From: an uncultured Akkermansia sp.
GTDB lineage: Bacteria; Verrucomicrobiota; Verrucomicrobiia; Verrucomicrobiales; Akkermansiaceae
Reading direction: 5' to 3'
DNA length: 64,000 bases
Assembly (NCBI GenBank): GCA_949296365.1
Contig: CASFPZ010000016.1
Span: 17,157 to 81,156, forward strand
This document shows positions 2,143 to 53,169 of this stretch, in pieces. The notes beneath the pieces are model-generated. The model was not told where the DNA came from, ran no database searches, and saw only the letters and a program-made list of their open reading frames with translations. The stretch's first letter is position 1, and each line of letters opens with the position of its first letter. The position numbers were made by a program, and so were the translations under genes.

Positions 2143-4440
2143 ATGATTCCATCTCTCCCACAACAGACTCCTCAAGAACGCATTGCTTGGCTCCGTTCAG
2201 AGCTCGAACGCCACAATCGCCTCTATTATATTCAAGCCGACCCGGAAATCTCTGATAGCGAATACGATGCTTTGTTTCGCGAACTCGAAGGACTCGAACA
2301 TTCCCATCCGGAACTAGATTCACCCAATTCTCCCACAAAACGCGTCGGTGGAGCGCCCCAAGAGGAATTTGCTTCTATCCAGCACCAAACGCCCATGTTG
2401 TCCATCGATGATATTTTTGAGCATTCGGGATCAGAGGAACCGGATCAGGAATTGATCGATTATTACGAACGGACCTGTCAACTAGCAGGAGAGTCTCGGT
2501 TAGACGTTACCGTTGAGCCCAAAATTGACGGAGTCGCCATAACCCTTATGTATCAGAATGGTCAGCTCGCCTACGCAGCGACACGTGGGGATGGCCATGT
2601 GGGAGACGACATTACAGCCAACGCCCGAACTATCCGCTCCATTCCTTTGTTTCTCCAAAGTCATTTTTTGCCGGAAGTTCTCGAGGTACGAGGAGAAATC
2701 TTCATGCCCAAAGAGGATTTTGCCCGACTCAATGCAGAGCGCGATATGAATGGAGAACCAGCTTTTGCCAACCCCCGCAATGCCGCAGCCGGTACGCTAA
2801 AACTACTAGACTCTCGTCAAGTTGCCAAGAGACCATTAGCCTTTATCGCCCATGGAATAGGAAGTTACCACGGGCCCAGACTCAACAATGCCGACGACTT
2901 TCAACGGTTGCTCCAAGAATGTGGTCTTCCCTGCAATACCCCCGTGCTAAAAGCCACTTCTCTCGATGAAGTTCGTCAGGCAGTACGACAAATCGATCAA
3001 TTGCGCCACACCCTTCCCTTTGGGACAGACGGAGCCGTTGTAAAACTGTACGATTTCACACTTCGAGAACAGTTAGGAGCCACAGCGAGGGCACCCCGTT
3101 GGGCCGCCGCTTACAAATTTCCGCCAGAGCAAAAAGCCACCCTTCTCAAAGCTATTTCTATTCAGGTAGGACGAACAGGAGTATTAACACCAGTAGCCGA
3201 GCTCTCGCCAATTCGGCTCTCCGGGACAACAGTCTCACGTGCAACCCTGCATAACCAGGATGAAATTTCGCGCAAAGACATTCGCATAGGCGACACAGTT
3301 ATCGTTGAAAAAGCGGGAGAAATTATTCCAGCCATTATTCGCATTGTTCCAGAAAAACGCCCTACCGATGCGCAACCTTATTCAATAGTCAAAGCAGTTC
3401 AGGGGATGTGCCCAGCCTGTGGGGCACCGATTTCGCAACAAGAAGGAATGGTTGCCTGGAAATGTACCAATTTTACCTGTCCAGCTCAGGCCGTTTCTCG
3501 CATTACACATTTTTGTTCACGAGCAGCTCTTGACATCGAGAGTATTGGAACTTCGGCAGCGGAAGCGCTCGTGGAGGCCCGATTGGCTCATTCTCCGCTC
3601 GATCTATTTGATCTTAGTATCGATCAACTGGCAGGATTAAATCTTGGAACTGTCGATGAGCCCAGACGTTTTGGCGAAAAAAATGCACGCAAAGCTTGGG
3701 AAGCGCTACACACAGCAGCGCCCAACTTGCCACTCGACCGTTGGGTGACCGCATTCGGCATTCCTCAAGTTGGAGAAGTCATAGCTCACTCGTTAGCAGC
3801 AACTCACGCTAGTTTAGTCCAGTTGTCTGATTCGCCTTATCTAAGGGATCTAATTCGTTTAGATAATTTACTCAATCAACTACAGTTAGCAAACCCCAAT
3901 ACTCGAGCCAATAAAAAACTCATTCGAGAAGCTCCAGACAGCGAAGTCAATATCCAGCAAAACTTTGTCTCTTTGCTGAATACCTACACGTCAACCGCAC
4001 GACCATGGCTCGAACGCGGCTACATTCGAGAGCTCAAAAACAAAGTAGGGAAAATACCAGCCTATGGTTCAGATATCGGAGTTTCAGCTGCACGAGAAAT
4101 CATTAATTTCTTTGCGTCACAAGCCGGGCGCAGAGTCCTCCAGAAACTCGACCAACTGGATATTACCCCACCATCTCCCACATATCGGGCCTATGCGAAT
4201 GAACAAAACCAAGGACTCTTAGAGGGCAAATCGTTCGTCATTACAGGAACACTCAGTCAACCTCGCAGTTATTTCGAGAAACTCATAGCAGAGCATGGGG
4301 GTAAAGTTTCATCAGCCATTTCTCAGGCTTCATCCTATTTGTTAGCAGGCAAAGGAGGGGGATCTAAACGAGCGAAAGCCGTTCAGTGGGGAATCTCTAT
4401 CATTTCCGAAGAGGACTTCATGAAGATGATCCACTCGTAA
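2143..4440 (+). CDS. ligA: NAD-dependent DNA ligase
   Basis: EPKIDG adenylation motif, ATRGDG, NPRNAAAGTLK, Zn finger CPAC...CTNFTC, HhH region and C-terminal BRCT (GKSFVITGTL). Confidence 0.97.
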   Translation: MIPSLPQQTPQERIAWLRSELERHNRLYYIQADPEISDSEYDALFRELEGLEHSHPELDSPNSPTKRVGGAPQEEFASIQHQTPMLSIDDIFEHSGSEEPDQELIDYYERTCQLAGESRLDVTVEPKIDGVAITLMYQNGQLAYAATRGDGHVGDDITANARTIRSIPLFLQSHFLPEVLEVRGEIFMPKEDFARLNAERDMNGEPAFANPRNAAAGTLKLLDSRQVAKRPLAFIAHGIGSYHGPRLNNADDFQRLLQECGLPCNTPVLKATSLDEVRQAVRQIDQLRHTLPFGTDGAVVKLYDFTLREQLGATARAPRWAAAYKFPPEQKATLLKAISIQVGRTGVLTPVAELSPIRLSGTTVSRATLHNQDEISRKDIRIGDTVIVEKAGEIIPAIIRIVPEKRPTDAQPYSIVKAVQGMCPACGAPISQQEGMVAWKCTNFTCPAQAVSRITHFCSRAALDIESIGTSAAEALVEARLAHSPLDLFDLSIDQLAGLNLGTVDEPRRFGEKNARKAWEALHTAAPNLPLDRWVTAFGIPQVGEVIAHSLAATHASLVQLSDSPYLRDLIRLDNLLNQLQLANPNTRANKKLIREAPDSEVNIQQNFVSLLNTYTSTARPWLERGYIRELKNKVGKIPAYGSDIGVSAAREIINFFASQAGRRVLQKLDQLDITPPSPTYRAYANEQNQGLLEGKSFVITGTLSQPRSYFEKLIAEHGGKVSSAISQASSYLLAGKGGGSKRAKAVQWGISIISEEDFMKMIHS

Positions 4441-4466
4441 AAGTCATTCATACACGCTTCATTCCT

Positions 4467-5030
4467 ATGGCATTCATCATTCTCGGAGTTACCGGTTCCA
4501 TTGCTGCTTATAAAGCGGCTGATCTCTGTTCTCGCCTCGTCAAATCAGGACACGATGTCCACTGCGTTTGCACAGCTAAAGCATGCGAATTCATCACACC
4601 TTTGACTTTGCAAACAATATCACGCAATCGTGTCTTTACTTCATTCGACGATGAAAAGAACGAATGGATTCCCCCTCATATCAGCATGACCGACAAAGCC
4701 GCTCTTCTCGTCGTGGCCCCCGCCACAGCCAATACCATCGCTCACATGGCTTACGGATTCGCTCATGATATACTAGGGGCAGTCTACCTGGCGACACAAA
4801 GCCCAATTCTCATCTGTCCAGCTATGAATACGCGCATGTGGACCCACCCAGCAACACAACATAACAAAAGAATTTTAGCAAGTCGCCCTAACCATTACAT
4901 TTTGGGACCCGCCTCTGAAGGAGTTCTCGCTTGTGGAGCTCGAGGTGCAGGGAAACTTGTGCCAGTCGACACCATTGTGCAAGCGATCCAAGATATTCTG
5001 GATGGCCATTCGCCGACGCAATGTATTTAA
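4467..5030 (+). CDS. coaC: Phosphopantothenoylcysteine decarboxylase (stand-alone CoaC flavoprotein)
   Basis: IILGVTGSIAAYKA, VAPATAN, PAMNTRMW, LACG..G.GKL motifs; no CoaB domain. Start set at ATG 4467 to avoid overlapping ligA. Confidence 0.9.
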   Translation: MAFIILGVTGSIAAYKAADLCSRLVKSGHDVHCVCTAKACEFITPLTLQTISRNRVFTSFDDEKNEWIPPHISMTDKAALLVVAPATANTIAHMAYGFAHDILGAVYLATQSPILICPAMNTRMWTHPATQHNKRILASRPNHYILGPASEGVLACGARGAGKLVPVDTIVQAIQDILDGHSPTQCI

Positions 5031-5061
5031 TGCGCATTTTTTACTTTTTACGCGTTGTGCA

Positions 5062-5673
5062 ATGACTTATGATATCGACATGAAAGCGGCAGTTCTTTTC
5101 ATGATGCTTGCATGTTGTCTGTGTTCCTGTGAGACCAAGTTCCCGATCAGTTTTCATATGGAGCAGAAAGACGATTTGGGCAAATCATTCAAAGCAGTCG
5201 ATAAATTCACCATTCGCGAAAAGAACAAAGTTTTTGACCGAGCGCCCTTTCTTTCTGGCAACGATATGCAGAGTTACCGTTCTTTTCCGGCGCAAGATGG
5301 GACTTACGGTGTCGTATTCAATGTAAAAAGGATGATGTGGTCGCGTCTGGAAGCTTTCACAACCAATAATTTGGGTTCAGATATTCTCCCCATGGTTAAT
5401 GGACATCCCATGGAAGTCACCCACCTCTACAACAAACCTATCACGTCGGGGAAAATAGTCATTTGGGGAGGGTTTACTCCGGCTGACTTAGCGGTTTTAG
5501 CCGACACCATACCGCCGGAAAACGAAGAAAAAGAGCAACCAATCCTTAATATTGCCGACTCGACTAAACCTAATTTAAGTGTCAGCCCGCAAGAATGGGC
5601 AGAGCGACAAAAAGAAAAAGCCGAGGAAGTAGAGGAGCGCAAGGTGATCTCAGAAAAACGAGGGAGATTCTAA
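5062..5673 (+). CDS. Hypothetical lipoprotein, possibly with a SecDF P1-head-like fold
   Basis: Signal peptide with Cys (LACCLCSC); GVVFNV...LPMVNG...PITSGKIVIWG pattern recalls SecD head subdomains; charged tail. Confidence 0.5.
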   Translation: MTYDIDMKAAVLFMMLACCLCSCETKFPISFHMEQKDDLGKSFKAVDKFTIREKNKVFDRAPFLSGNDMQSYRSFPAQDGTYGVVFNVKRMMWSRLEAFTTNNLGSDILPMVNGHPMEVTHLYNKPITSGKIVIWGGFTPADLAVLADTIPPENEEKEQPILNIADSTKPNLSVSPQEWAERQKEKAEEVEERKVISEKRGRF

Positions 5674-6729: not shown

Positions 6730-9444
6730 ATGAAAACATACCTGCCTATGACATCCTTATTGTCTTATTTTCCACTCTGCCTTTTCTTAGTCCACACGTC
6801 AGTTTTGTTGTCTGTAGGGAAAGAGGCGACAATCATGTCGTCGCCGGATCCAGTCGTCTCAGGCAAAATTTCCATTTCCAGTCCAGCATTTCAACGCGGC
6901 CTTAAAGCACTCAAAGATCAATTGCCACTCATTGCCGTCAGGAATTTCCAGGATGCGCTACGAGTTCACGGTGGCAAATGGAATCAAAAACAATTAGAAG
7001 TAGTCAATCAATTTTTGGGAGAAGCCATGATACGTTCTGGCAAATACACAGAAGGGTTGCAAGTGCTCTCTTCACTACCACAGACTCCCGCCAACAACTA
7101 TTGGACAGCGATTGGACTCATCGGACAAGGTTCACTCATTCGTGCCCTTCAATGGCTCACTCACACCGAAATTCCCAAAAATTCTCAGTGGGCCCCTTAT
7201 TATTTGCAAACTCGAGCAGTCATTGCAGGTCGGCTCAATGATCAACAGTTGTTAGAAACCAGTCTTAAAGAACTCGTCTCCCTCCAAGCCGGCGCCATAT
7301 CTGCCCGTGCAGCCATTTGGCTCGCAAGCCTGCACATGCAAAACAAACAATACGATCAGGCATTGGAGACATTAACACCCTTGTTAACTCGCCACGAAGA
7401 TCCACCAGCCTGGTTGTCGAACCTCATTCCTCTAGTTCGCATCGTCCAAGCCCAAATCATGGGAGCTCAAGGTCAATGGGATCCAGCTATCGCCCAATTA
7501 AAAAATCTGGCTGAATCCCCTAAATTGCCAATCAAGTATAAAAATTTAGCACAAGTTACCATTGCTTTACTACATCTTGATCGAGATAAAGATCAGGCAA
7601 AGGCTCACACAGGTAAACCAGACGAACCATCCCCAGTTGAAGAGTCAACACCCGGCGATGAGTCAAATGTTGCGAAAAATTACCTAGGAGAAGATCAATT
7701 ATTAGCTTTCATCTCCAGTAATCCTGATTCTCAATTGTTGACAGACGTATTCAGAGTTTTGTTGCAAGAGAAGACTTTTCAGTCAAATCCGCAAGCTTTA
7801 GAAAAATTGACCTCATGGGCTAACGACACAAACAGTACGCGACAGCCTCTTGCAGCTTACGCCCTCTGTGAAATTTTCAACCGGGAAAAAGATTACGAAG
7901 GCCTCATTTCTCTCACTCGCAAAACTTTAAAACAAGCTCCAGCACATCCTGCTTCAGAAGCCTTGCTCATCAAGACCCTGCACACATTACTCCAACTTGG
8001 GTATGTCGACCAAGCCGACAGTTTGCTCAAAGAATTTCCGTCGTTTCAATCAGTTGCAGTACGTTTCCAAGCAGGCAGAATCGCCTATGAACAACAACGA
8101 TTCGAAGAGGCGCTGCAACTTTTTCAATCGACTTTTTGGGAAGGAGGCGACCGCCTCATGAATACCTCGCTGTATAATGCAACCTTAGCCGCTTTGGAAT
8201 TGTCTGATCGAAACGCCCTCGATGCCATCATGCAGCAAGCAGTCATGGATTCTAATCTTCGAGAAAAACTTGCATACGAGCAAGCACATTATATTGCCCA
8301 ACGCATGATGCCAGAAGCCCAACAAGCGCTTCAATCCATGATTAATGAATTTCCCAATTCTCCTTGGGTAATTCCAGCAAAGCTCGATCTGATCGAAGTG
8401 TTACTCAACCAAAATCCCCCTGACGTCAAAGAAGCAGCTCGTCAAATGAACTTATTCCCCAAGGATAAGTTGGATGCACAGGCTAAATTGAGATACGCAC
8501 GGCTCAACATCATTCTTTTAGAAATTCAACAAAGTTGGGATAAAGCCATCCAGGCAGCGCGAGATGCACTCAAACAATATCCCGATGCCCCCTGTGCCGA
8601 TGCAATTCAACTTAAGCTAGGAGAATTATTGTATAAAAGCGGGAGTTTCAACGAATCATTGTTAGTACTTCAGCCATTTAGCGAGCGGTATCCCGATTCA
8701 GATTTGAAGCGCCCAGCTATGTTTCTAGCTGGGCGAGCAGCCGAACAATGCAATACCCAGGATTCACTCGACACAGCTCTAGGACTATTCCAACAGTTAG
8801 CTGACACCCCTGGGAGGCTTTCTAGTTCCTCGAAAGTAGAAATTGCAGCACTACTGCTCAGGACAGGTAAGACTCAAGAAACGATCGATTATCTCAACCG
8901 CCTCCTTCAGCAACGACTTTCACAGCCGCTCAGGCTACAAGCACTATCTATCTTAGCAGAGGCTTGGGCCTCCATGGGGGATTCAGCACCAGATTCACTA
9001 GTAACAGCCAGAAGACTCTGTACCCAAATGCTCGAAATGCCTAATATCCCCCTGCACTGGAAATTTAAGGCACTTGCACAGCGAGCCCAATTTGCTGAAA
9101 AGCAAGGGAATTTGAACGCAGCTCTCGAAGATTATTTGTCTATTCTTCAATATGCACCAACCAATGATCAAGCATCCAGCCGCAAAGATTGGTTTTGGTT
9201 TTACAGCGCGGGTTTTTCGGCACTGCATATTCTAGAACTTCGTCAGGATTGGCAAGCAGCTCTCGACTTGGCGATACGACTTTCCAAGACGTCCGGGCCC
9301 AAAGCAGCCGATGCAGCTAATCGAGCTAGACGTATCCGGCTCGAACATTTTATCTGGAATGACATCGACCTTGAGCCTATTTCTTTTCCGGACTCCGGCC
9401 AACAAAAGAATCCTGTTCCTCAATTGGAGCCTGCAGAGTCTTAA
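6730..9444 (+). CDS. Large secreted TPR protein
   Basis: 904 aa, signal peptide, many TPR-like helices (AIQLKLGELLYKSG...ERYPDS). Confidence 0.75.
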   Translation: MKTYLPMTSLLSYFPLCLFLVHTSVLLSVGKEATIMSSPDPVVSGKISISSPAFQRGLKALKDQLPLIAVRNFQDALRVHGGKWNQKQLEVVNQFLGEAMIRSGKYTEGLQVLSSLPQTPANNYWTAIGLIGQGSLIRALQWLTHTEIPKNSQWAPYYLQTRAVIAGRLNDQQLLETSLKELVSLQAGAISARAAIWLASLHMQNKQYDQALETLTPLLTRHEDPPAWLSNLIPLVRIVQAQIMGAQGQWDPAIAQLKNLAESPKLPIKYKNLAQVTIALLHLDRDKDQAKAHTGKPDEPSPVEESTPGDESNVAKNYLGEDQLLAFISSNPDSQLLTDVFRVLLQEKTFQSNPQALEKLTSWANDTNSTRQPLAAYALCEIFNREKDYEGLISLTRKTLKQAPAHPASEALLIKTLHTLLQLGYVDQADSLLKEFPSFQSVAVRFQAGRIAYEQQRFEEALQLFQSTFWEGGDRLMNTSLYNATLAALELSDRNALDAIMQQAVMDSNLREKLAYEQAHYIAQRMMPEAQQALQSMINEFPNSPWVIPAKLDLIEVLLNQNPPDVKEAARQMNLFPKDKLDAQAKLRYARLNIILLEIQQSWDKAIQAARDALKQYPDAPCADAIQLKLGELLYKSGSFNESLLVLQPFSERYPDSDLKRPAMFLAGRAAEQCNTQDSLDTALGLFQQLADTPGRLSSSSKVEIAALLLRTGKTQETIDYLNRLLQQRLSQPLRLQALSILAEAWASMGDSAPDSLVTARRLCTQMLEMPNIPLHWKFKALAQRAQFAEKQGNLNAALEDYLSILQYAPTNDQASSRKDWFWFYSAGFSALHILELRQDWQAALDLAIRLSKTSGPKAADAANRARRIRLEHFIWNDIDLEPISFPDSGQQKNPVPQLEPAES

Positions 9445-9456
9445 ATTATTTGAGTT

Positions 9457-10806
9457 ATGCCGAATCAACAACCTCACCCCAGACCTTGGCGCCCTAACGC
9501 CGCTGCTGTGATCATCAGTACTGAAGGTAAAGTCTTGCTCGGCAAAGATCCGGGCAATAATGACTACTGGCACTTTCCTCAAGGTGGCGCAGTCAAAAAT
9601 GAACCCATTGAACATGCCCTTGCACGGGAAGTTTGGGAAGAAGTTGGTTTACGACCGGCTGACTATATGATCGCCCGCTCAATCTCTAACCTTAGATACA
9701 AATATCCGGAACACAACAGTAAAAGCAACAGATGGATCGGACAAAACCAAACCTACTTTCTTCTCGTTTGCAAAAATGATCATCCCAAAATATCTGTTGC
9801 AAGAAGTTCTGAGTTTTCAAAAGTCAAATGGTTTGATATACATGAATTGAAATTAAGCATTTTCCCCAAATTTAAGCGTTCAGTCATTCAAAAAGTGCTT
9901 TTGGAATTTTTCCCCGAGCATTCACAGTCCAGTCTCACCGAGACGTCTTGCGTTTCCACTTTACACCCTAATGTCCCTATCAACCAACAACTCCCTGTTA
10001 TGGATAGATACCTCGTACCACATGGTTCTAAGTTAAACTTCAAAAATTTTCCACCCGATGACAAAAACTTGTTTTCGGGGAACAAAGAAGAATCTCTCGT
10101 AGAATTTAACGCACTTTCCAAAGAGTTCCAAGAATTACAGCGTAAATTCTATGCTGAAAATAAACACCGCATGCTCATCATTTTTCAGGCTATGGATGCC
10201 GGGGGAAAAGATGGGTGTATTAGAAACGTTTTTTCCAATGGAGACCCACAAGGGATCCGCGTCATTCCATTCAAAAAGCCAACTCCTGATGAATTAGCTC
10301 ACGATTATCTGTGGCGTATTCACAAAGAAGTTCCTGGCAATGGCCAAATTGTTATCTTTAATCGTTCTCATTACGAAGACATCATTGCAGTTAAAGTAAA
10401 ACGCCTATTCCCTGATGAGGTTTGGAAACGCCGTTACCAATCAATTATTGATTTCGAGCGGATGCTTGCGGAAGAAGGCACAACAATTATCAAAATCTTT
10501 CTCAACATCTCGAAAGCAGAACAAAAAGCTAGGCTCGAAGGCAGACTCAATAATCCAGAAAAAATTTGGAAGTTCCAAATGGACGATCTGGATGACAGAA
10601 ATAGATGGGATGATTTTCAAAACGCATATAGAGACTTAATTGAAGCGACCTCATTTCCCCACGCGCCATGGTACATTATCCCAGCCAATCGTAAATGGTA
10701 TAGGAATCTCGTTGTCCTACGGTTGGTTGTCGAGAAACTCCGCAGTCTCAAATGTACTTACCCTCAGCCTATTTTCGATCCATCAACAATCAAAATTTCT
10801 GACTGA
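9457..10806 (+). CDS. Fusion of an RppH-like Nudix hydrolase and polyphosphate kinase 2 (class III-like)
   Basis: N-terminal WHFPQGG plus a complete Nudix box GGAVKNE-PIEHALA-REVWEEVGL; C-terminal QAMDAGGKDG, FKKPT..EL.HDYLWR, FNRSHYED, PWYIIPANRKWYRN. Confidence 0.9.
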   Translation: MPNQQPHPRPWRPNAAAVIISTEGKVLLGKDPGNNDYWHFPQGGAVKNEPIEHALAREVWEEVGLRPADYMIARSISNLRYKYPEHNSKSNRWIGQNQTYFLLVCKNDHPKISVARSSEFSKVKWFDIHELKLSIFPKFKRSVIQKVLLEFFPEHSQSSLTETSCVSTLHPNVPINQQLPVMDRYLVPHGSKLNFKNFPPDDKNLFSGNKEESLVEFNALSKEFQELQRKFYAENKHRMLIIFQAMDAGGKDGCIRNVFSNGDPQGIRVIPFKKPTPDELAHDYLWRIHKEVPGNGQIVIFNRSHYEDIIAVKVKRLFPDEVWKRRYQSIIDFERMLAEEGTTIIKIFLNISKAEQKARLEGRLNNPEKIWKFQMDDLDDRNRWDDFQNAYRDLIEATSFPHAPWYIIPANRKWYRNLVVLRLVVEKLRSLKCTYPQPIFDPSTIKISD

Positions 10807-10951: not shown

Positions 10952-11740
10952 ATGAAAGGAAATTCTAAGACCACAAAGAAAGGAGGTTTATTACTGACCA
11001 CTGAGAGAAATGAATTTATTTTAAGACAACTAGCCGAACATGGAGCAGCCCGAACCACACTTTTGGCAAAAGCCATGAATGTAACAGACGAAACAGTTCG
11101 TAATGATTTGATTCGCTTGGAGCAGAGAGGGTACCTCATGCGAGTCCACGGAGGTGCTGTTCCCATTGCCAAGAAAATTAGCACTAATACTAGTAAGATA
11201 CACACTGCTCGCGATGTTGATTTAGCTAAAGCAGTCGTACGTTACCTCCAGCCTAAAACAACAGTTTTTCTTGATGGAGGTATATTTGGGGGACTTATAG
11301 CTTCGTATCTGCCTGCAAATAATATGACGATCGTTACAAATTCCCCAATCATTTTTAACCAGTTAAAAGACGAGCCTCATATTAATATCTATGCCACCGG
11401 AGGTCTTTTCGATCGAGAATCCAACCTCTTTTTAGGACGTCGTGCAGTTGAATCCATTAGCCATATGGCGATGGATCTAGCCATTCTAATCGCCGATTCA
11501 TTTATTCCTGGCCGAGGGCCAGGATTCACCAACCTGGGAAAAGCGGATTTCTTTGAAGCTATTGTTCCTTTAGTACGTTCTTTTTATGTCGTGTGTCCCG
11601 CCTCTGCTTACCAAGAAAATGTTTCCTATTTTCCCATCTCGTCATCAAATATACATAAATTGATGACTATTGCTGAAAATATTGGGAACGAAGATCTCAT
11701 CACAATCAACCGAGAGGGCATACAGGTTGAGGTCGTTTAG
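10952..11740 (+). CDS. DeoR/GlpR family transcriptional regulator
   Basis: ERNEFIL...NVTDETVRNDLIRLEQRGYLMRVHGGA HTH; VFLDGG and IVTNS sensor motifs. Confidence 0.92.
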   Translation: MKGNSKTTKKGGLLLTTERNEFILRQLAEHGAARTTLLAKAMNVTDETVRNDLIRLEQRGYLMRVHGGAVPIAKKISTNTSKIHTARDVDLAKAVVRYLQPKTTVFLDGGIFGGLIASYLPANNMTIVTNSPIIFNQLKDEPHINIYATGGLFDRESNLFLGRRAVESISHMAMDLAILIADSFIPGRGPGFTNLGKADFFEAIVPLVRSFYVVCPASAYQENVSYFPISSSNIHKLMTIAENIGNEDLITINREGIQVEVV

Positions 11741-11801: not shown

Positions 11802-13028
11802 ATGAGAATCGGCCTTATCCAACCAGATGTTATACCAGGGGATTTTCCCAAAAACCTCAGATCGATTATCGAAGCCTACCGAGCATGCATTGACGATGAA
11901 GCACAACTCGTCATCGCTCCGGCTATGAGCTTGAGTGGGCCCCATCCAGGAGAACTCCTTGCTCGCTCAGCATACATTTGCGAGCATGAAAGCGCTCTCC
12001 AATACATGTGTCGAGAAATAGCCGACATACCTCTTATTATGGGGTCTATCTCTGGTCTATCGTCTAATTATCAGCCTATTTGCAATCGTTACCTTTTGAC
12101 GCATGACCACCTCAAATGCCTGTCTCCATCTGAAAGCATAGTTTCTATCCAGAATCACCAGATATTAATAGAACATTCAGAAACCATTCCACTACGATCG
12201 TCCGAGGACAACATAGTAGATCTCATCTTATGCCTGCCTAGCAATCCCTGGCAAATCGAACGATCAAATAACTGGTTGTCAGTTGCTTCTGAAGCAGCAC
12301 GATCTTGGCACGCCCCCACCATTGTTGTACAGCATGCAGGCGGATCAGGAGAATTCGTTTTTCCGGGCAATTCCATGGTATGGAGCTCACTAGGACATTG
12401 GGTTGGGGGGCTTCCTCTATTTACAGCAGCTGATCGAGTATTCGATACTTGTCTCCAAGCTTTACCCCCCACCCTCCCAACTTTGAGATCGCAAATCCTC
12501 CTGGCTATTCAAACCTCCATCCGCAGTCTGCTCATCAAAGGAGGATTCGAAGGTGTTTTGTTGTTGAAAGAAGATGTTCCGGCCTGTCACCTATTAATAC
12601 AATTAGTTAAGCAAATTATAGGAGAAGTTCCCCAGATGGTTCAACCATTGAATCAACCCACTCCCCTAGAAATAGCAACCTCCCAGAATAGCCTTTTACT
12701 TTCACCTTGTTCCAAGAACCAACGTCTATTTGAAAATGTACCCTTAGCGCACTATGCTCCCTGCGCTGACTTATGGGATAGCGAACTTATTCAATTAGTT
12801 GATCCTAAAATTACAAATTGGTCAGAAAAAGATCGGGTCCTCAATTTGCTCGTCGACAACCATCGTTCAGGGACCGACTTGATTGCCGACGGATTTCCTG
12901 AACTTTTAGTACGTCAACTCCAACGCCAACTCGAACGATCGCGTTGGTTGCGTCACACCAACATACCTTGGCTTCACATGCATGGCGCCACATTGCCAAG
13001 TCCCCTTTTGCACCGTTTTTCCGACTAA
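11802..13028 (+). CDS. Degenerate glutamine-dependent NAD synthetase-like protein (nitrilase domain plus eroded NadE domain)
   Basis: MRIGLIQ...GDFPKNL, GGSGEFVFPGNS, C-terminal LVRQLQRQLERSRWLR. The catalytic PEL is PAM and SGGxDS is absent. Confidence 0.65.
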   Translation: MRIGLIQPDVIPGDFPKNLRSIIEAYRACIDDEAQLVIAPAMSLSGPHPGELLARSAYICEHESALQYMCREIADIPLIMGSISGLSSNYQPICNRYLLTHDHLKCLSPSESIVSIQNHQILIEHSETIPLRSSEDNIVDLILCLPSNPWQIERSNNWLSVASEAARSWHAPTIVVQHAGGSGEFVFPGNSMVWSSLGHWVGGLPLFTAADRVFDTCLQALPPTLPTLRSQILLAIQTSIRSLLIKGGFEGVLLLKEDVPACHLLIQLVKQIIGEVPQMVQPLNQPTPLEIATSQNSLLLSPCSKNQRLFENVPLAHYAPCADLWDSELIQLVDPKITNWSEKDRVLNLLVDNHRSGTDLIADGFPELLVRQLQRQLERSRWLRHTNIPWLHMHGATLPSPLLHRFSD

Positions 13029-14860: not shown

Positions 14861-14889
14861 TTGACAGAGTAAGGACTCATGTCTATTTT
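14861..14889 (+). promoter_or_regulatory. Sigma70-type promoter of the corrin operon, overlapping a hairpin
   Basis: TTGACA (14861-66), 17 bp spacer, TATTTT (14884-89), directly before the riboswitch. Confidence 0.55.
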
Positions 14890-15062
14890 TTAGGCCACCT
14901 AACGGGGAATTCCGTGAGAACCGGAAACAGTCGCGCTGCGGTATCGGGTTACGACTCTTCAACGCTGTCTTTTTTATAAGGCAGATCCAGCCAGTCTCAT
15001 TTTCGTATGGGGTGAAGGCGAAGAGAAGAAATGAAGCCCGGAGTCCGAATATCCGTCGGAGA
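14888..15062 (+). ncRNA. Cobalamin (B12) riboswitch
   Basis: AACGGGGAAT-TCCGTGAGAACCGGAAACAGTCGCGCTGCGGTA core, ...GGTGAAGGCG..., 3' GAGTCCGAATATCCGTC; immediately upstream of cbiL. Confidence 0.9.
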
Positions 15063-15083
15063 ATAACATATTAAATTCAACGC

Positions 15084-52076: not shown

Positions 52077-52149
52077 GCTTCCTCCTTACCTTAGAAAATA
52101 ATCCCCCCAGATTCAATCCTTTTCATATCTTTACCAAGTCTGTTGGATC

Positions 52150-52432
52150 TGTTCAATGAACACAAAAGTAAAGCGGGAAGCCGCCAATTGATCCAGTTTT
52201 GATGTTTAAGGTTCTATTTTCCCAACGCCTTTACGGGTTAAGCGACGAGCAGATGGAGTATCAAATAAAAGATCGCATGAGCTTTCGCGAGTTTATTGGA
52301 GTGGAAAGTGTATTGGGCGTGCCCGATGCCAGAACAGTGTAGAAATACCATAATGACCTGAGCAACAAGGGAGTATATGATATGTTATTCAAGCGTTTCT
52401 ACGAGTATCTCGAGAGCCAAGGGAGATCCTAA
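52150..52432 (+). mobile_element. IS5-family transposase N-terminal remnant
   Basis: PPIDPVLMFKVLFSQRLYGLSDEQMEYQIKDRMSFREFIG...VPDARTV*; contains an internal stop and is truncated. Confidence 0.8.
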
Positions 52433-52756
52433 TTTGCTCACCTGACGTATTTTTTGTTAATATATCAGTCAACCGCTAACCAGTTAATCCCTAGCCTTGG
52501 GAGCTCTTTGGATTGTTAGTTAATATGGATGGATTTTTAGAACATCCCTTTATTCTTTTCATACTTCTAACCCAACTCAATAGACCCTATTGTTAACAGA
52601 TTACAATCCGTTAATTTATTGTTATAATATATTGATAATCTGTGATTTACACGAATTACATTAGTATACTTGGATATATGAAAAATTAAGAAATAATTTT
52701 TTGCTATTCAATATATTATTAATAATCAATAGATTATGAGCATTGTGATTTTAGAG

Positions 52757-52785
52757 TTGACAACGGATTGTAAATCCGTTAATTT
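52757..52785 (+). promoter_or_regulatory. Sigma70-type promoter whose spacer is a palindrome, upstream of hldE
   Basis: TTGACA (52757-62), 17 bp ACGGATTGTAAATCCGT, TAATTT (52780-85). Confidence 0.55.
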
Positions 52786-53169
52786 TCAGTAGTCATATGT
52801 CTAATCGGTGTAGTCAATTTATTAAAAAAATACAATATCACATTATGAAGAGTATTTTTATTCATTTTAAAAACAGTAATCATTTTATGACATTTTACTA
52901 TCTACAGTTCAATTATTTTTTATTATTTCAATTTTGTTTCTAAAATTTTACTGTATTGTTGGGACTAAATAGCATTGATATAATACTCCCATCATTAAAT
53001 TTTTCTATGACTTACTACCACATTTCCAATATTAGCATTAATCTACCAGAAACTATTTATATTTAAATGGAAATACTACAAGGGCGGTTTTGTAAAACTA
53101 TTTTTACATCAATTGAATATAATTATATAAAACACATCTTAATCCTGTCATCAATAATTTATTAATTTT

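Follow-up and report, generated by a model that had tools for sequence, protein, structure and literature searches.

The Nudix-PPK2 gene and its two domains

The window analysed here is a stretch of 64,000 nucleotides (nt) from contig CASFPZ010000016.1 of an uncultured Akkermansia species, and the gene under study is an open reading frame (ORF) of 449 amino acids (aa) located on its forward strand at positions 9457..10806 (ATG start; TGA stop at 10804-10806). The encoded protein, which gave both Pfam and NCBIfam matches and is identical to database cluster P0001, was found to consist of three parts: a Nudix hydrolase domain of the RppH/NudH type (aa 10-155), a tether (aa 156-181) and a class III polyphosphate (polyP) kinase of the PPK2 family (aa 182-449). 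In the Pfam scan the NUDIX family (PF00293) matched aa 12-145 with 68 bits (cut-off 21.1) and the PPK2 family (PF03976) matched aa 210-429 with 232 bits (cut-off 22.3). The motifs that a sequence-only reading of this DNA had quoted, namely WHFPQGG, the Nudix box, MDAGGKDG and NRSHYED, were all present as given; the linker that it had placed between the two domains also exists, at a length of ~26 aa and not ~35.

AlphaFold2 (AF2) models were obtained as single-chain predictions, built from alignments of 28 and 30 sequences. The model of the protein in its canonical form, that is, with an intact kinase, comprised two confident domains and a disordered tether (mean predicted local distance difference test score (pLDDT) of 86). 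The tether (9922..9999, + strand) had a pLDDT of 30-37 over residues 156-179; across 28 orthologues it varied in length and showed a mean pairwise identity of 13%.

The possibility that two genes had been joined by read-through, or by an error of assembly or annotation, was rejected, because the continuous ORF recurs in ~45 protein clusters, which include sequences from complete genomes as well as a RefSeq MULTISPECIES entry. Separate translation of the kinase from the internal Met182 is unlikely. No Shine-Dalgarno-like sequence was present upstream of this codon, and the methionine is replaced by Leu, Ile, Val or other residues in many orthologues, so that a single polypeptide is the simplest reading. 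The fusion is therefore a genuine single-chain, two-enzyme protein of a bacterium of the genus Akkermansia, and the active sites of both domains are, as judged from their residues, intact and conserved.

The Nudix domain (9484..9921, + strand) was modelled with a pLDDT of 86-96. Its best solved relative was Escherichia coli RppH (E 3e-16; ~30-35% identical), and both this relationship and the ligand residues described below agree with the RppH/NudH-like assignment made in the sequence-only reading. The Nudix box GGAVKNEPIEHALAREVWEEVGL (aa 43-65; 9583..9651, + strand) fits the pattern GX5EX7REUXEEXGU, and its residues E49, R57, E58, E61 and E62 were invariant in the canonical proteins and in the degenerate relatives discussed later. 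In E. coli RppH the phosphates are contacted by R8, N10, R27, Q37, Y77, Q95 and K140, magnesium is bound by E53, E57, Q37 and E120, and a base cleft formed by R27, S32, V137 and F139 holds the second RNA nucleotide (PMC7144940). The fused domain retains R12, N14, Q42, E58, E62, Y81, Q96, E119 and K140, which correspond to R8, N10, Q37, E53, E57, Y77, Q95, E120 and K140 of the E. coli enzyme and are invariant across the fused clade; R27 is the sole metal or phosphate ligand that is not conserved. In the base cleft R27 is replaced by D31 (beside a nearly invariant K30), S32 by Y37 and V137 by P137, and only F139 is kept. The stand-alone RppH of the same genome also lacks R27 at the aligned position, and this cleft feature may therefore not be universal.

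Comparison of 52 fused sequences with 83 stand-alone RppH-like proteins revealed a signature specific to the fused clade, although the catalytic core was common to both groups. Position 39, within the WHFPQGG motif (aa 38-44; 9568..9588, + strand), was His in 98% of the fused sequences and Gln in 95% of the stand-alone proteins, H39 being a clade-specific replacement of the Gln in the WQFPQGG of RppH. Other near-invariant residues of the fused clade were W11 (Tyr in RppH), G78, Y83, W93, P110 and F136. The substitutions that lie near the active site (W11, H39, W93 and F136) suggest a shifted specificity. Scores against the NCBIfam RppH models ranged from 66 to 91 bits, the best being 90.7 (cut-off 139), 80.5 (cut-off 116) and 77 (cut-off 118), and on these sequence scores the domain is best called RppH-like and not RppH.

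Seven Nudix genes were detected in the genome from which the window derives. One of these encodes a stand-alone, 158-aa RppH-like protein (G000:C17:15596-16018, - strand) that outscored the fused domain on the RppH models, with 115.8 bits just under the NCBIfam cut-off of 118; judged by these scores, it is probably the housekeeping RNA pyrophosphohydrolase. Since this better-scoring copy exists and shares only 36% identity with the fused domain, the latter was regarded as an extra, diverged paralogue and not as the housekeeping RppH.

The PPK2 module (10000..10803, + strand) was assigned to class III. Its best solved match was the Meiothermus ruber PPK2 (5lc9/5o6k; E 1e-94), which aligned without gaps over query residues 183-439 and M. 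ruber residues 2-258. Because the alignment begins with aa 183 at M. ruber residue 2, Met182, which aligns with the start of stand-alone PPK2s, corresponds to their start codon. In Foldseek comparisons the AF2 model matched M. ruber PPK2 with a template-modelling (TM) score of 0.94-0.96, a root-mean-square deviation of 1.5-1.8 Å and 52-53% identity, and the NCBIfam model TIGR03709 (PPK2_rel_1) was matched with 346 bits (cut-off 247). The top seven sequence matches in the PDB were all class III enzymes or are listed as such in PMC8776046. The residue after Walker B, Asn, Gly or Glu, distinguishes PPK2 classes I, II and III, respectively (PMC8776046); in the window protein it is Glu307, located in an NRSHYED motif that is identical in M. 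ruber PPK2. By all of the sequence and modelled-fold criteria examined the C-terminal module is thus a class III PPK2, and the class III-like label of the sequence-only reading was borne out by the signature residue, the closest relatives and the TIGR03709 score.

Three catalytic elements were located in this module, all on the + strand: the Walker A motif MDAGGKDG (aa 246-253; 10192..10215), the Walker B region FNRSHYED (aa 301-308; 10357..10380), which carries E307 and in which N302 corresponds to N121 of M. ruber PPK2, and the lid helices with their basic residues R359, R363, K369, K372 and R381 (10507..10599). Walker A and the basic lid residues are invariant in canonical fusions; in the degenerate clade the former is lost and the lid is largely deleted. 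Mean identity within the canonical family was 70% for the PPK2 module and 56% for the Nudix domain. Because the kinase is the more conserved half and all of its catalytic residues are invariant, its chemistry is clearly under selection in this family. A further motif, FSGNKEE (aa 206-212; 10072..10092, + strand), contains three residues (F206, G208 and K210) that are invariant in relatives with a live and with a dead kinase, and these may mark a retained, non-catalytic function of the module. The three residues directly precede the first long PPK2 helix, and M. ruber PPK2 has them as well (FEGGK).

Distribution, origin and genomic setting of the fusion

A search of 5.8 billion proteins returned ~45 clusters (90% identity) of full-length Nudix-PPK2 proteins that were 49-76% identical; one cluster holds a RefSeq entry from cultured strains, 'MULTISPECIES: PPK2 family polyphosphate kinase [Akkermansia]'. 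The Walker A and B, lid and Nudix catalytic residues were invariant among 28 fused orthologues, down to 50% identity. Since the two-domain ORF recurs in this many clusters with both catalytic sets invariant, the fusion is far beyond chance.

The family Akkermansiaceae was surveyed in 121 genomes from 20 genera. A full-length fusion was present in nine of the 13 genomes of the same genus, the window's own included, and in one genome of each of two sister genera. Three other genomes of the genus (G021, G092 and G101) had an ORF with a dead kinase instead of the canonical fusion, and one (G117) had no fusion. Most of the other genera had an unfused PPK2 of ~275 aa, 50-63% identical to aa 181-449 of the window protein, together with one stand-alone RppH-like match. 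The sequence-only reading had allowed for a fusion confined to this genome; it proved instead to persist in many species of three genera, and no return to the unfused state was observed. The fused PPK2 is the only PPK2 in the window's genome. Several larger Akkermansia genomes carry a second, unfused PPK2 (~40% identical), encoded on the opposite strand at a distance of ~10 kb from the fusion gene (G083:C1:636759-637562; G074:C2:125929-126732; G109:C2:28015-28818; G064:C1:586919-587719; G054:C1:1723003-1723824).

Independent fusions of an RppH-like domain to PPK2 were also looked for. A word-indexed search with the Nudix region among proteins of 247-786 aa returned only the fused clade, and among the 150 matches listed in a HMMER search with the Nudix domain the other long proteins were Nudix-aminotransferase or tandem-Nudix proteins; the scope of both searches stops short of fusions that use unrelated Nudix subfamilies. 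A supplementary figure legend of PMC11968564 names NUDIX and NUDIX_1 as the commonest extra domains in PPK2 genes.

In the window the fusion gene is preceded by a gene for a 904-aa tetratricopeptide repeat (TPR) protein (6730..9444, + strand) whose stop codon lies 12 nt before the fusion ATG; because the gap is this short, the two genes are probably co-transcribed. The TPR neighbour was also found in G002, G083, G064, G044 and P0002. Downstream lies another conserved neighbour, a gene for a DeoR-family regulator (10952..11740, + strand).

The setting was different in the earliest-branching fused lineages (the G009, G019 and P0040 contigs), in which the fusion gene divergently adjoins ppx and ppk1. 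The unfused PPK2 genes of G016, G093 and L021 lie within the same ppk1-ppx cluster. Because the basal fusions and the unfused genes share this cluster, the kinase half is the ppk2 of a ppk1-ppx/ppk2 polyphosphate cluster to which a Nudix paralogue was added at the 5' end, and the neighbourhood of the basal fusions ties the fusion to polyP metabolism. In the window and its closest relatives the gene has been relocated to its present position between the TPR and DeoR genes; the window's genome retains an intact ppx-like gene and a complete, four-domain ppk1 on another contig.

In a maximum-likelihood tree of 70 Nudix-domain sequences, a weakly supported branch (87/20) separated all of the fused sequences from the stand-alone RppHs, that of the window's genome among them. 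The G009 sequence was the earliest-branching fused member and the remaining 54 formed a strong clade (99/99). This topology is consistent with one fusion event, in which an extra RppH paralogue was joined to ppk2.

Several other features of the window were recorded. The only Rfam match was a cobalamin riboswitch (RF00174) at 14875-15074 on the + strand (44 bits; gathering score 31.5), and no tRNA genes were found in the window. Downstream of the DeoR gene lies a 408-aa ORF (11802-13028, + strand) whose single match, at the N-terminus, was to the CN_hydrolase domain and was weak and below threshold (21 bits); it may represent a NAD-synthetase-like protein that has diverged or been reduced to a remnant. 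A 246-aa ORF (4933-5673, + strand) had no Pfam match; its predicted 5' end lies ~100 nt inside the preceding flavoprotein ORF (4386-5030), an overlap that makes the start codons uncertain. The counterparts of these two ORFs in the relative L117 do not overlap. A region of ~1.1 kb at 52077-53169, located in the lowest-GC stretch of the window (0.36, against 0.45 overall), had no ORF of at least 100 aa and no Rfam match, and a second low-GC stretch (0.38) lies at ~28-30 kb.

A derived clade with a dead kinase

The aberrant ORFs of G021, G092 and G101 encode proteins of 369-386 aa in which the Nudix domain is complete and PPK2 can hardly be recognised (0-37 bits). This degenerate form was found in at least 55 clusters, at lengths of 355-430 aa and down to 36% identity; examples are located at L101:2983-4143 (+ strand), L102:2986-4095 (+ strand) and L103:2605-3732 (- strand), and also in L113-L116. 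In the Nudix tree it formed a single clade (100/98) nested inside the canonical fusions, with the G034-type group as its sister (97/94). The two groups have a common gene order of pseudopilin genes, an LplA-like gene, the fusion and mfd; in the dead-kinase clade three pseudopilin genes and the LplA-like gene always precede the fusion gene and mfd comes after it.

Every RppH-type residue is invariant in this clade, whereas the Walker A Lys and Asp, NRSHYED and most of the lid have been lost or deleted. An intermediate (P0246) has lost Walker A and still has the lid. In reverse of the canonical order, mean identity in the degenerate family was 35% for the PPK2-like part and 55% for the Nudix domain. 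In three close pairs the pseudo-PPK2 core nevertheless had a ratio of non-synonymous to synonymous substitution rates (dN/dS) of 0.11-0.24, against 0.13-0.20 in the Nudix domain; this estimate is drawn from three close sequences. The pseudo-PPK2 fold is kept under purifying selection and is not freely decaying.

The AF2 model of the degenerate protein was a single compact body (pLDDT 93; predicted TM score (pTM) 0.91) in which the former linker is structured. Foldseek matched its halves to E. coli RppH (TM 0.81) and to class III PPK2 (TM 0.62-0.66), and the pseudo-PPK2 is predicted to pack on the intact Nudix domain. Judging by the matches listed, a genome that carries the dead-kinase form apparently lacks any other intact PPK2. 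Because the kinase is dead, the Nudix domain intact and the fold retained, the Nudix domain appears to have a function that is independent of PPK2 products, and the PPK2 fold a second role that is not catalytic. The Nudix domain is the constant element of the family, and the PPK2 fold persists without catalysis. As far as the searched literature shows, the clade is undescribed; it constitutes a natural experiment that separates a catalytic from a scaffolding role of PPK2 and a new example of a pseudoenzyme domain that partners a live enzyme.

Possible functions and comparison with known systems

The reading that we favour, although tentatively and with less than even confidence, is that the window protein is a polyP-powered unit that cleans up and recharges nucleotides, in which PPK2 is also a physical partner of the Nudix domain. 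The Nudix module would cut the oligophosphate chain of 5'-oligophosphorylated substrates. Candidate substrates are dinucleoside tetra- to hexaphosphates and nucleoside tetra- and pentaphosphates, including the over-phosphorylated by-products of PPK2 itself, and possibly RNA ends that are Np4-capped or tri- or diphosphorylated. The tethered PPK2 would then re-phosphorylate the resulting nucleoside mono- or diphosphate (NMP or NDP) to the triphosphate (NTP) at the expense of polyP. The PPK2 body may in addition serve the Nudix domain as a partner or scaffold, through oligomerisation, positioning or possibly activation, and this role would have persisted after loss of the kinase. It may be likened to that of DapF, a metabolic enzyme that stimulates E. 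coli RppH (PMC6061855).

The known chemistry of the homologues is compatible with such a scheme, as the sequence-only reading had held. RppH cleaves diadenosine tetra-, penta- and hexaphosphate (Ap4A, Ap5A and Ap6A), always with release of ATP, and removes Np4 caps (PMC8833179). Class III PPK2s phosphorylate both NMPs and NDPs from polyP, and PPK2s, including that of M. ruber, make adenosine tetra- and pentaphosphate (Ap4 and Ap5) (PMC8776046).

Several points weigh against the favoured reading. The substrates proposed for both domains are taken from homologues, and the fused Nudix domain does not reach the equivalog cut-off of any NCBIfam RppH model. Together with the altered base cleft, these low scores mean that the preferred substrate may lie outside the candidates considered here. 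The AF2 model of the canonical protein (pTM 0.59) did not predict a fixed interface between the Nudix and PPK2 domains, which leaves channelling or activation without structural support in the window protein. Finally, the TPR gene upstream and the DeoR gene downstream provide no functional clue from the context in this genome.

An alternative that we consider possible but unlikely is a coupling to RNA decay, in which the Nudix domain would convert tri- or diphosphorylated or Np4-capped RNA 5' ends to monophosphorylated ends while PPK2 consumes inhibitory polyP and recycles NDP and NMP to NTP. Apart from R27, the phosphate and metal ligands of RppH are conserved, as are F139 and K140 of the RNA cleft, and the degenerate form lies directly upstream of mfd, which encodes a transcription-coupled factor. 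Such a coupling would, moreover, echo the E. coli degradosome, of which PPK is reported to be a sub-stoichiometric component (PMC3997798, citing Blum et al. 1997). However, the genome already contains a better-scoring stand-alone RppH, the two residues that hold the second RNA nucleotide in the E. coli enzyme (R27 and S32) are not conserved, and the clade-specific residues near the active site point to a specificity that has shifted.

The sequence-only reading had likened the protein to RelA/SpoT, as a bifunctional enzyme with opposing activities. In such a writer/eraser arrangement PPK2 would make alarmone-like nucleoside tetra- and pentaphosphates from ATP or GTP and polyP, the Nudix domain would degrade them, and the two activities would be under reciprocal control. 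The enzymology of the homologues is in its favour: PPK2s of all classes, M. ruber included, form Ap4 and Ap5 and some form up to nona-phosphorylated nucleosides (PMC8776046), while RppH-type enzymes need at least four phosphates in dinucleoside polyphosphates (ApnA) and release ATP (PMC8833179). Both domains are also intact and tethered. The over-phosphorylation was, however, described as minor, at 'detectable levels' (PMC8776046), and a large derived clade has kept the eraser after losing the writer, apparently with no other intact PPK2 among the matches listed. In that clade an intact Nudix domain is accompanied by a destroyed kinase site and by a PPK2 fold that is selected and predicted to be packed. 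Furthermore, no regulatory element or interface was predicted in the canonical form, no RelA/SpoT homologue (RSH) synthetase or HD hydrolase domain was found in Pfam and NCBIfam scans of the fusion protein, and no evidence of reciprocal regulation as in RSH enzymes was found for the fusion. A relay from product to substrate, in which the Nudix domain yields NMP, NDP or NTP and PPK2 re-phosphorylates the first two, is at least as compatible with the observations. The RelA/SpoT picture is therefore weakened, and we consider it distinctly unlikely; the domains, the kinase class and the compatible chemistry set out in the sequence-only reading all stood, and the fusion proved to be conserved well outside its own genome.

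The retained fold of the dead-kinase clade is also what would be expected if PPK2 were mainly a non-catalytic platform even in the window protein, one that binds polyP, anchors the enzyme to granules or forms tetramers, and that localises or allosterically gates the Nudix domain according to polyP or nucleotide status. The selected fold and its predicted packing on the Nudix domain favour this proposal, as does the precedent of an inactive PPK2 domain kept in Pseudomonas aeruginosa PA3455 (PMC8776046). It is nevertheless very unlikely for the canonical protein, whose PPK2 shows higher conservation than its Nudix domain and no variation at any catalytic residue. A role in polyP sensing is, moreover, unlikely to be what the degenerate clade retained, because it no longer has the basic lid residues to which polyP binding is attributed.

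Equally improbable in our judgement is a neutral fusion of the 'Rosetta-stone' kind, in which two independent housekeeping enzymes were joined with no functional coupling. The disordered, poorly conserved and length-variable linker and the lack of a predicted interface in the canonical form would fit such an event. However, three genera and many species have maintained the fusion, no reversion was observed, and the Nudix part is a diverged additional paralogue, distinct from the housekeeping copy. The retention of the PPK2 fold after catalytic death (dN/dS ~0.1-0.2), with a predicted tight packing, also argues against neutrality.

Least probable of all, and barely more than speculative, is a switch at RNA 5' ends set by polyP, in which PPK2 would phosphorylate mono- or diphosphorylated ends or build Np4-type ends that protect transcripts and the RppH-type module would remove them; cellular polyP status would then directly set mRNA stability, and the dead-kinase clade would be a constitutive 'decapper' in which the PPK2 body was kept as a surface for binding RNA or a partner. 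An origin in a defence system or a phage was rejected, as only generic Nudix matches turned up: of the PADLOC defence models, the fusion protein matched just the candidate PDC-S07, through a generic Nudix similarity (29.7 bits), and the dead-kinase form matched none.

Proteins with this architecture are already annotated publicly, under the names 'PPK2 family polyphosphate kinase' or 'NUDIX domain-containing protein'; the architecture is thus catalogued but uncharacterised. No published characterisation of the fusion, in Akkermansia or elsewhere, was found in the searched literature, and no solved structure with both domains was present among the PDB sequence and Foldseek matches. PPK2 enzymes are widely used as ATP regenerators, although the physiological roles of PPK2s and of nucleoside tetra- and pentaphosphates are poorly understood, and the RppH/NudH family governs Np4A alarmones, Np4 RNA caps and 5'-end-dependent mRNA decay. 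The conserved fusion provides a strong 'Rosetta-stone' argument for a functional tie, in at least one lineage, between polyP-driven nucleotide phosphorylation and a hydrolase of the RppH/NudH type. Akkermansia, a gut commensal under intensive study, is open to culture and mutagenesis, which makes this link directly testable. A single chain that hydrolyses Ap(n)A or Np(n) compounds and regenerates NTP from polyP could also serve cell-free nucleotide or RNA synthesis.

Among known systems, the likeness to RSH enzymes is conceptual only, in that the synthesis and hydrolysis of phosphorylated nucleotides would be combined on one chain; there is no relationship in sequence or fold, and the 'synthetase' of the fusion family is dispensable in the derived clade. 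Mycobacterium smegmatis MutT1 (PDB 5gg5, 6m72), which was among the Foldseek matches, also combines a Nudix domain with a second domain of a phosphoryl-transfer type, and that second domain acts on the nucleotide product. It has a different fold, however (TM ~0.4 overall), and no link to polyP. P. aeruginosa PA3455, a class II PPK2 whose N-terminal PPK2 domain is inactive, resembles the dead-kinase clade in its use of a dead PPK2 fold as a structural partner in the same chain (PMC8776046); in PA3455 the partner is another PPK2 domain and the protein is still a kinase, whereas the surviving enzyme of the dead-kinase clade is a Nudix hydrolase.

The kinase half is closest to stand-alone enzymes. 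M. ruber PPK2 (class III; PDB 5lc9, 5o6k, 5ld1) has identical Walker A and FNRSHYED motifs and aligns without gaps over 257 residues, but is a protein of ~267 aa, whereas the fusion has a Nudix domain and a tether before the equivalent of its first residue. The unfused PPK2s of other Akkermansiaceae (Luteolibacter, Roseibacillus, Haloferula and others) are the orthologous kinases, 50-63% identical and located in the same ppk1-ppx neighbourhood as the basal fusions; they carry no Nudix domain, and their genomes appear to have a single RppH-like match. On the Nudix side, E. coli RppH (NudH/YgdP) shares the Nudix box and the magnesium and phosphate ligands and also works with a partner, DapF. The fused domain differs in that base-cleft residues R27, S32 and V137 are not conserved, and in that it is covalently joined to its partner.

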